Below, one piece after another: positions 17,390 through 17,582 of a stretch of 64,000 nt of DNA. The position numbers were made by a program, and so were the translations under genes. This stretch comes from Escherichia coli (GTDB taxonomy: Bacteria; Pseudomonadota; Gammaproteobacteria; Enterobacterales; Enterobacteriaceae). The DNA is taken from the NCBI RefSeq assembly GCF_003334385.1, contig NZ_QOWN01000006.1; one strand, given 5' to 3'. Within the stretch, counting starts at the first letter, position 1. Each line of letters begins with the position of its first letter. The notes beneath the pieces are model-generated. The model saw only the letters and a program-made list of their open reading frames with translations. It made no database searches and was not told the origin of the DNA.

Positions 17390-17582
17390 TATACTAACGA
17401 ATCCCTCACTCTGGCAAATTACCACCACCTCCACAGGAGGTGGTTCTATATAGACTTTTATCAACTTCATGACGAAAAACACCTATTTTATCCCAAAAGA
17501 AGACAATAGAGTCACAGAGGAATCAAAGAGCGACTCAATTGTCTTTGGACAGTCTGGTTGTGAGGTTAGAAAACAGTTACTC

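Follow-up and report, generated by a model that had tools for sequence, protein, structure and literature searches.

A perfect palindrome between int and ybtS of the Yersinia high-pathogenicity island as a probable orphan IS200-group hairpin

A perfect palindrome in the spacer between the integrase gene (int) and ybtS of the Yersinia high-pathogenicity island (HPI) has the same 21 nt as the hairpins that flank the transposase gene of one IS200-group lineage. We consider it probable (roughly 0.55) that the palindrome is a solo IS200-group end hairpin, left over from an old insertion or a miniature derivative, and that it now serves as a weak two-way transcription stop or as a hairpin protecting 3' ends. 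The sequence analysed was a 64-kb stretch of DNA (the window), which carries the classical HPI at a tRNA-Asn gene. The HPI is among the most studied pathogenicity islands, and recognition of the palindrome as IS200-type would give it an origin.

Results

The palindrome and its surroundings

The features of the int-ybtS junction are collected in Table 1. An earlier note, made from the sequence alone, had called int an integrase remnant, and comparison with an intact 1263-nt copy bears this out, since the gene in the window is 347 bp shorter inside and the deletion shifts the frame. Isolates with an intB PCR product about 350 bp smaller have been described (PMC2801613; PLoS One, 2010). The convergent arrangement of int and ybtS likewise holds, and the spacer measures 193 bp instead of the 190 bp given previously. 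The RefSeq annotation places no feature in this spacer, and we found no description of one in the literature on the HPI.

Table 1. Features at the int-ybtS junction, in positions of the window.
Feature	Position	Strand	Remarks
tRNA-Asn gene, HPI attachment site	16237..16312	+	
P4-type integrase (int) pseudogene	16474..17389	+	347-bp internal deletion; TAG stop ends at 17389
Sigma-70-like promoter match	17388..17417	-	TTGCCA, 18 nt, TATACT; 10/12; consensus match only
int-ybtS spacer	17390..17582		193 bp; specific to the classical HPI int-ybtS junction
Palindrome	17424..17444	both	Solo IS200-group-type hairpin; 21-nt identity with IS200-group end hairpins and other solo sites
Loop and loop-closing pair C17432:G17436	17432..17436		Closing pair polymorphic (C17432T, G17436A)
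Second, imperfect inverted repeat	17500..17545	-	14-nt arms, 93% complementary; minus-strand tail CUUCUUUUGGG
ybtS (salicylate synthase)	17583..18887	-	RefSeq annotation of identical DNA; PDB Irp9/YbtS matches

The palindrome, ACCACCTCC-ACA-GGAGGTGGT, is a perfect inverted repeat that lies 35 nt past the int stop. All of its letters are as first reported, and the 8-bp core arms (CCACCTCC at 17425-17432 and GGAGGTGG at 17436-17443, around the loop at 17433-17435) are extended by one further A-T pair, so that the stem has 9 bp, six of them G-C, and a 3-nt loop. With its flanks, the RNA is predicted to fold at -15.6 kcal/mol on the plus strand and -18.5 kcal/mol on the minus strand (z about -3), and the corresponding values for single-stranded DNA are -9.2 and -9.5 kcal/mol (z of -5.1 and -4.4). 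The palindrome is non-random. When any perfect hairpin with a stem of at least 9 bp and a loop of 3-8 nt was counted, dinucleotide shuffling of the spacer yielded one in just 24 of 5000 cases (0.5%), and the whole window contains nine against an expectation of 1.6; the pattern of the palindrome itself occurs once in the window, with 0.01 occurrences expected. A covariance-model search of the spacer with Rfam 15 returned zero matches even at E values up to 10, and no Rfam family was found at ten other palindrome-bearing loci, IS left ends included.

Two longer perfect palindromes in the window (24937-24969 and 46417-46451, with 14-bp and 15-bp arms) lie just past the ORFs at 23946-24905 and 44391-46412, which we take from HPI gene order to be ybtA and fyuA, and are presumably the terminators of these units. 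The window has four tRNA-Asn genes in total; the region 60019-61587 comprises a second one together with a second P4-type int that shares about 74% DNA identity with the HPI int and is split into two ORFs.

The same hairpin flanks transposase genes outside the HPI

A 31-nt query centred on the palindrome found matches in about 700 HPI-free E. coli genomes and at 244 places on plasmids. Among the inspected sites, unrelated loci carry (A)ACCACCTCC-NNN-GGAGGTGGT(T), and the hairpin occurs downstream of espK in O157-type prophages (AACCACCTCC-ACA-GGAGGTGGTT) and in the convergent queD / dpdD intergenic region. An exact scan of viral contigs for CCACCTCC-N3-GGAGGTGG gave 57 loci, whereas three control palindromes of matched composition yielded 8, 14 and 22. 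In the viral collection, any 16-nt pattern of this sort should turn up sporadically by chance about a dozen times.

At three loci (L123, L111 and L133), the hairpin occurs twice, about 590 nt apart, on either side of a 144-aa ORF. This ORF reaches 139.9 bits on NCBIfam NF033573 (IS200/IS605 transposase; cut-off 55) and is annotated by RefSeq as tnpA in E. coli B7A. The element spans about 630 bp, as judged by eye from its end motifs (8995-9626 in L123), its TnpA is 37-38% identical to those of IS200C, IS200F and IS1541A, and full copies are present in 28 E. coli genomes. By sequence, the element of L123 and B7A is an unnamed member of the IS200 group. Its ends have 8-9-bp stems and 3-nt loops. 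The left end consists of a host terminator with its T-run, followed by ATTGTNNNCCCTAAA, the hairpin and TGATTG, and the right end of GAAAAG, the hairpin and TCTTTTAC. In a second lineage, whose TnpA is only 61% identical, the left-end stem is unchanged and the right end carries a compensated variant, CCGCCTTC/GAAGGCGG. IS-type flank motifs accompany the hairpin in at least 21 of 36 distinct flank contexts, and the ninth A-T pair of the HPI copy is common to 23 of the 36.

Forms that lack the transposase are common. Many plasmids (L153 among them) carry a 119-nt solo left end, which in one example lies between a permease gene and a ProQ/FinO-family gene that converge, and there are mini forms with one hairpin (L114, L088) as well as bare hairpins, such as those past espK. 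When two of the espK loci were compared (L085 and L087, both in O157-type prophages), a 1.5-kb block of 90.6% identity was found to stop exactly at the 3' foot of the hairpin, with unrelated DNA beyond and with loops of ACA and CGT, respectively, on the same strand. In the L123-type element, a short ORF (MGILQAIALQDQSPPP..., MGFLRVIALQEQSPPP, MGFLQARASQVQSPPP) is conserved antisense to the left end and the tnpA 5'UTR (L123 9005-9118, minus strand; L086; L111), with Pro-Pro-Pro encoded by the hairpin arm. This ORF may simply mark a conserved antisense RNA comparable to art200 of IS200.

The HPI copy shares stem and architecture and lacks the rest of the element

The end hairpins of the IS200/IS605 family are what the TnpA transposase recognises on single-stranded DNA. 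The HPI hairpin has the architecture of such ends, with its 9-bp stem and 3-nt loop next to stems of 10 bp and 8 bp, also with 3-nt loops, in IS200C and IS1541A, and it has the stem sequence of the CCACCTCC/GGAGGTGG hairpins that bracket the NF033573-positive ORF in L123, L111 and L133. Three other defining features are absent. A tblastn search of the window with the L123 TnpA returned noise only (E of 2.4 or worse); no partner hairpin, expected about 600 bp away, accompanies the single copy in the window; and neither the left-end motifs (ATTGTNNNCCTAAA or TGATTG) nor the right-end motifs (GAAAAG or TCTTTTAC) stand beside the HPI hairpin. Nor do the HPI flanks resemble the left end, right end or interior of the element, local alignment scores falling within the shuffle range and the best identity of an adjacent flank being 14/30 against a mean of 10. 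The HPI hairpin is thus not an element end and is at most an orphan.

A match between one given 9-bp stem and another is expected by chance about once in 262,144 cases. Since the stem, the ninth pair and the ACA loop all agree with a prolific transposase-linked family found in the same hosts and the same type of DNA, a relationship to the IS200-group hairpins is more likely than coincidence, and we infer that the HPI palindrome is an orphan of this family. Because flank similarity, a TnpA homologue and a second hairpin are all missing, the case for descent from the IS consists of some 21-24 identical nucleotides.

Presence and variation among HPI copies

The spacer was found in about 2260 of 5426 complete E. 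coli genomes, and also in plasmid-borne ybt loci of Klebsiella, in Raoultella planticola and in 31 metagenome or viral contigs. Nine contigs with non-E. coli flanks carry it in a lineage that is only about 98% identical to the window; these were located by taking the YbtS sequence of PDB entry 5jy9 to the contigs that encode that protein. The cluster listing for YbtS contained no Yersinia member. Absence from other HPI copies had been proposed as grounds for dismissing the palindrome, and it is instead present in all classical copies examined, in E. coli, on the Klebsiella ICE and plasmids, in Raoultella and in the approximately 98%-identical lineage. Its outer 8 bp were invariant in all 51 HPI copies sampled. 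We nevertheless set conservation aside as a test of function, since the HPI is nearly clonal (98-100% identical): with 13 of the 193 spacer nucleotides variable, about one variable site is expected in the 16 outer-stem positions, and zero has a probability of about 0.34.

The loop-closing pair does vary. The perfect palindrome is present in 1328 of 2259 E. coli genomes (58.8%), while G17436A occurs in 673 (29.8%), C17432T in 199 (8.8%) and other variants of the 61-nt segment in 59 (2.6%). The closing pair is therefore broken in about 39% of the E. coli copies, with no sign of compensation, at a cost of only 1.7-2.6 kcal/mol, which leaves stems of -12.4 to -13.3 kcal/mol. In each of the two common variants the final C of the 5' arm has become T, on opposite strands. 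The E. coli haplotypes at 17406/17432/17436 are T/C/G (515), T/T/G (15), T/C/A (0), A/C/G (about 813), A/T/G (about 184) and A/C/A (673). C17432T is thus seen on both 17406 backgrounds, and the existence of all four combinations of 17406 and 17432, sites only 26 nt apart, suggests recurrent mutation, possibly at a hairpin-associated deamination hotspot, or recombination. The T/A polymorphism at 17406 falls inside the spacer of the promoter-like match.

In Klebsiella plasmids L012-L016, only the last 28 nt of int remain before a full spacer with an intact palindrome, and the DNA upstream of a break at about 17362 is unrelated, so that the palindrome has been kept without int. Private SNPs of these plasmids at 17418, 17446 and 17453 flank the palindrome, and none lies inside it. 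The homology is just long enough to take in the promoter-like match. Two provirus-annotated IMG/VR contigs (L017 and L018) have an IS-like insertion (TGAAGTGGTCAACAAAAACTGGCCACC...) at the equivalent of 17489, between the palindrome and the second hairpin. A metagenome contig, L028, terminates in a Nextera adapter (CTGTCTCTTATACACATCT...) just inside the ybtS 3' end, which is an assembly artefact in the public record.

A search of genome contigs with YbtS yielded five loci for comparison with more divergent ybt clusters. The spacer is missing from those of Salmonella diarizonae, Raoultella ornithinolytica, K. michiganensis and K. oxytoca. Canonical hairpin and T-run terminators follow ybtS in the Salmonella diarizonae, K. 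michiganensis and K. oxytoca loci, in the latter two at a position equivalent to that of the 17500-17545 repeat. In Salmonella enterica subsp. diarizonae (L002), whose YbtS is 98% identical, the sequence departs from the HPI exactly at the stop (17583) and a different canonical terminator comes next, which indicates that the ybt cluster has acquired different neighbours exactly where the gene ends.

Transcription termination at the int-ybtS junction

The palindrome had been described as having no T-run on either strand and hence as unlikely to be a standard terminator. The first statement is strictly true, and a terminator scan made no call; the sequence that follows is TTCTATAT on the plus strand and GGTAATTT on the minus strand. 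The plus-strand tail is, on the other hand, U-rich with interruptions (UUCUAUAU). In terms of an intrinsic terminator, a GC-rich stem-loop of about -15 kcal/mol is present soon past the int stop codon, and a proper U-tract is lacking, the tails being UCUAUAUA (4 U in 8, past the 9-bp stem) on the plus strand and GGUAAUUU on the minus strand.

To dismiss terminator activity on this basis was premature, in view of both the terminators that related int genes carry at an equal distance and the analogous left end of IS200. The paralogous int in the window stops at 61518 and is followed about 33 nt later by a canonical terminator (AAAAGCAGATCC...GGATCTGCTTTTTTT, 61550-61587), and int relatives of 58-72% identity have terminators 0-45 nt past the stop. 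For IS200, the inverted repeat of the left end (nt 12-34) has been described as a bidirectional rho-independent terminator that protects the element against impinging transcription (PMC4513863; NAR, 2015). In the one copy each of IS200C and IS1541A that we read, the left-end hairpin is AACCCCCAGC-TAG-GCTGGGGGTT, which by its 23-nt length and left-end position would be the repeat characterised in that study; no long T-run follows it, and both copies are inserted directly past host terminator T-runs. By analogy, the HPI palindrome is plausibly a weak two-way transcription stop or a hairpin at the int 3' end.

For ybtS, the imperfect repeat at 17500-17545, which begins 38 nt beyond the stop on the minus strand, is a better terminator candidate than the palindrome and is likely the terminator of ybtPQXS. 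In the approximately 98%-identical lineage, two A-to-G changes weaken the outer stem of this repeat on the minus strand, and in some copies G17499A turns its minus-strand tail into seven U. Our literature search found no ybtS or int terminator, sRNA or transcript-end mapping for the spacer.

Regulatory and translational readings

The earlier note had preferred a protein-binding site or an RNA structural element to a standard terminator. That the palindrome is not a canonical T-run terminator agrees with our results, as does protein binding in so far as the sequence matches the hairpins of TnpA-type systems. Binding in the sense of a duplex operator found no support. An operator for a dimeric regulator of double-stranded DNA, acting for example on the minus-strand promoter-like site, is highly improbable, even given the perfect dyad symmetry with its 3-bp spacer and the presence, immediately past the palindrome on the minus strand and antisense into the int 3' end, of a 10/12 sigma-70 match whose -35 hexamer is 7 nt away. 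Promoter-like matches in the region are at chance frequency (3 against 2.2 expected). The window holds no other copy of the palindrome and no exact half-site outside it, and half-sites with one mismatch (15 against 9.0 expected) show no clustering at promoters. Elsewhere, the same sequence adjoins transposases in many unrelated mobile elements, not regulators, and the operator was rejected as a candidate.

Pairing of a Shine-Dalgarno sequence with its complement had also been suggested, because the arms contain GGAGG and CCUCC, which are paired in the hairpin. A translational element that sequesters GGAGG in this way is scarcely credible and was likewise rejected, as no start codon of a real ORF lies 5-10 nt past either GGAGG. 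The nearest downstream ATG in plus-strand sense, at 17469, is 28 nt beyond GGAGG, and on the minus strand the sole start in range is a UUG that opens a 3-codon ORF; the ORFs that run across the palindrome are antisense artefacts.

Discussion

We favor the view that the palindrome is an end hairpin of one IS200-group lineage that now stands alone, as all that can still be recognised of an old insertion or a miniature derivative. Since the palindrome is in every classical HPI copy examined, such an insertion would predate the sampled copies, and since it has neither transposase nor partner hairpin nor cleavage-site flanks, it would no longer be mobile. What remains is a stem-loop predicted to be stable on both strands, at the usual site of an int terminator, and this probably acts as a weak, non-canonical, two-way transcription stop or as a hairpin that protects 3' ends. 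In the closely related ICEKp1 and ICEEc1, the tRNA-Asn promoter also transcribes int (PMC13023037). Transcripts that continued past int would enter ybtS in antisense, so that a barrier ahead of ybtS would be of use; the palindrome could hold back such read-through from tRNA-Asn/int and, for transcription in the other direction, back up the imperfect ybtS terminator at 17500-17545. Terminator activity is thus something that we infer, from position, structure and analogy.

The alternative that we take most seriously, while thinking it unlikely, is that int gained an ordinary 3'-end hairpin or weak intrinsic terminator independently, and that this is identical to the IS200-group hairpins by coincidence. 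The distance of 35 nt from the int stop, the stability of the stem on both strands and the complete absence of IS-type flanks, transposase and partner hairpin all fit such an origin, and the control palindromes too were found at sporadic viral loci. The coincidence would, however, have to produce a given 9-bp stem together with a matching ninth A-T pair and ACA loop in the same host range, and the resulting terminator would have a poor U-tract. It is rather improbable, in our estimation, that the palindrome is a functionless relic or a chance palindrome, kept because the HPI is young and nearly clonal. This reading bears on function alone and does not conflict with an IS origin. Near-identity of the HPI copies means that universal presence proves little, the lack of outer-stem variants is not significant, and the closing pair mutates without compensation, all of which would be expected of a relic; the rarity of such a hairpin in shuffled spacers, its placement at the int terminator position and the stem energy that the variants retain argue the other way.

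A broader proposal, that the CCACCTCC-N3-GGAGGTGG hairpins form a dispersed orphan class of portable two-way insulators that are also preferred points at which modules break and join, strikes us as distinctly improbable. It is hinted at by the homology block past espK that ends at the hairpin foot and by the separation of the integration module from the yersiniabactin genes by the HPI hairpin. If it were true, the symmetric and apparently recurrent C-to-T changes of the closing C would show that the hairpin is extruded in vivo. In the HPI, no module boundary was found at the palindrome, the breakpoints being at about 17362 (Klebsiella plasmids), 17391 (IS1, strain XJ5.2), 17489 (L017/L018) and 17583 (Salmonella).

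Reading the palindrome as a solo IS200-group end hairpin leads to a concrete, testable function, in which the hairpin would shield the antisense strand of the yersiniabactin operon from int transcription driven by tRNA-Asn. For HPI biology, the practical consequence is probably small. The comparison also brings to light the unnamed IS200-group element: its end hairpins, solo left ends and one-hairpin mini forms occur widely on prophages and plasmids of E. coli.

Among known systems, the IS200-group ends (IS200/IS605 family, Y1 HUH TnpA) share their design with the HPI hairpin, a 3-nt loop on a perfect stem of 8-10 bp, of which IS200C and IS1541A are examples, and the hairpins that flank tnpA in L123-type elements are identical to it over 21 nt. 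These ends come with tnpA, a partner hairpin and end or cleavage motifs (ATTGT..CCTAAA, TGATTG, TCTTTTAC), whereas the HPI copy is without any of them. PATEs and the REP/REPIN sequences with their RAYT, which are miniature derivatives of HUH-transposase elements, are, like the HPI copy, hairpins related to Y1 transposases and dispersed in intergenic DNA without a transposase; the HPI hairpin differs in occurring once per HPI and not as a repeated family within the genome, and the E. coli REP consensus is not known to be related to it. The one-hairpin mini forms L114 and L088 retain end motifs that the HPI copy does not have. The terminators of P4-type int genes occupy the same site as the HPI hairpin (+35, compared with about +33 in the paralogue and 0-45 in relatives) but have A-tracts and T-tracts of 5-8 nt, which the HPI hairpin lacks. 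The IS200 left-end stem, AACCCCCAGC, differs from the CCACCTCC of the HPI, so that termination as described for IS200 would extend to the HPI copy by analogy. Nevertheless, in the copies that we read the IS200 left-end repeat is, like the HPI hairpin, short, perfect and GC-rich, with a 3-nt loop and no long T-run, and the HPI hairpin is placed, as that repeat is, where transcription from outside (tRNA-Asn/int, ybtPQXS) would impinge.
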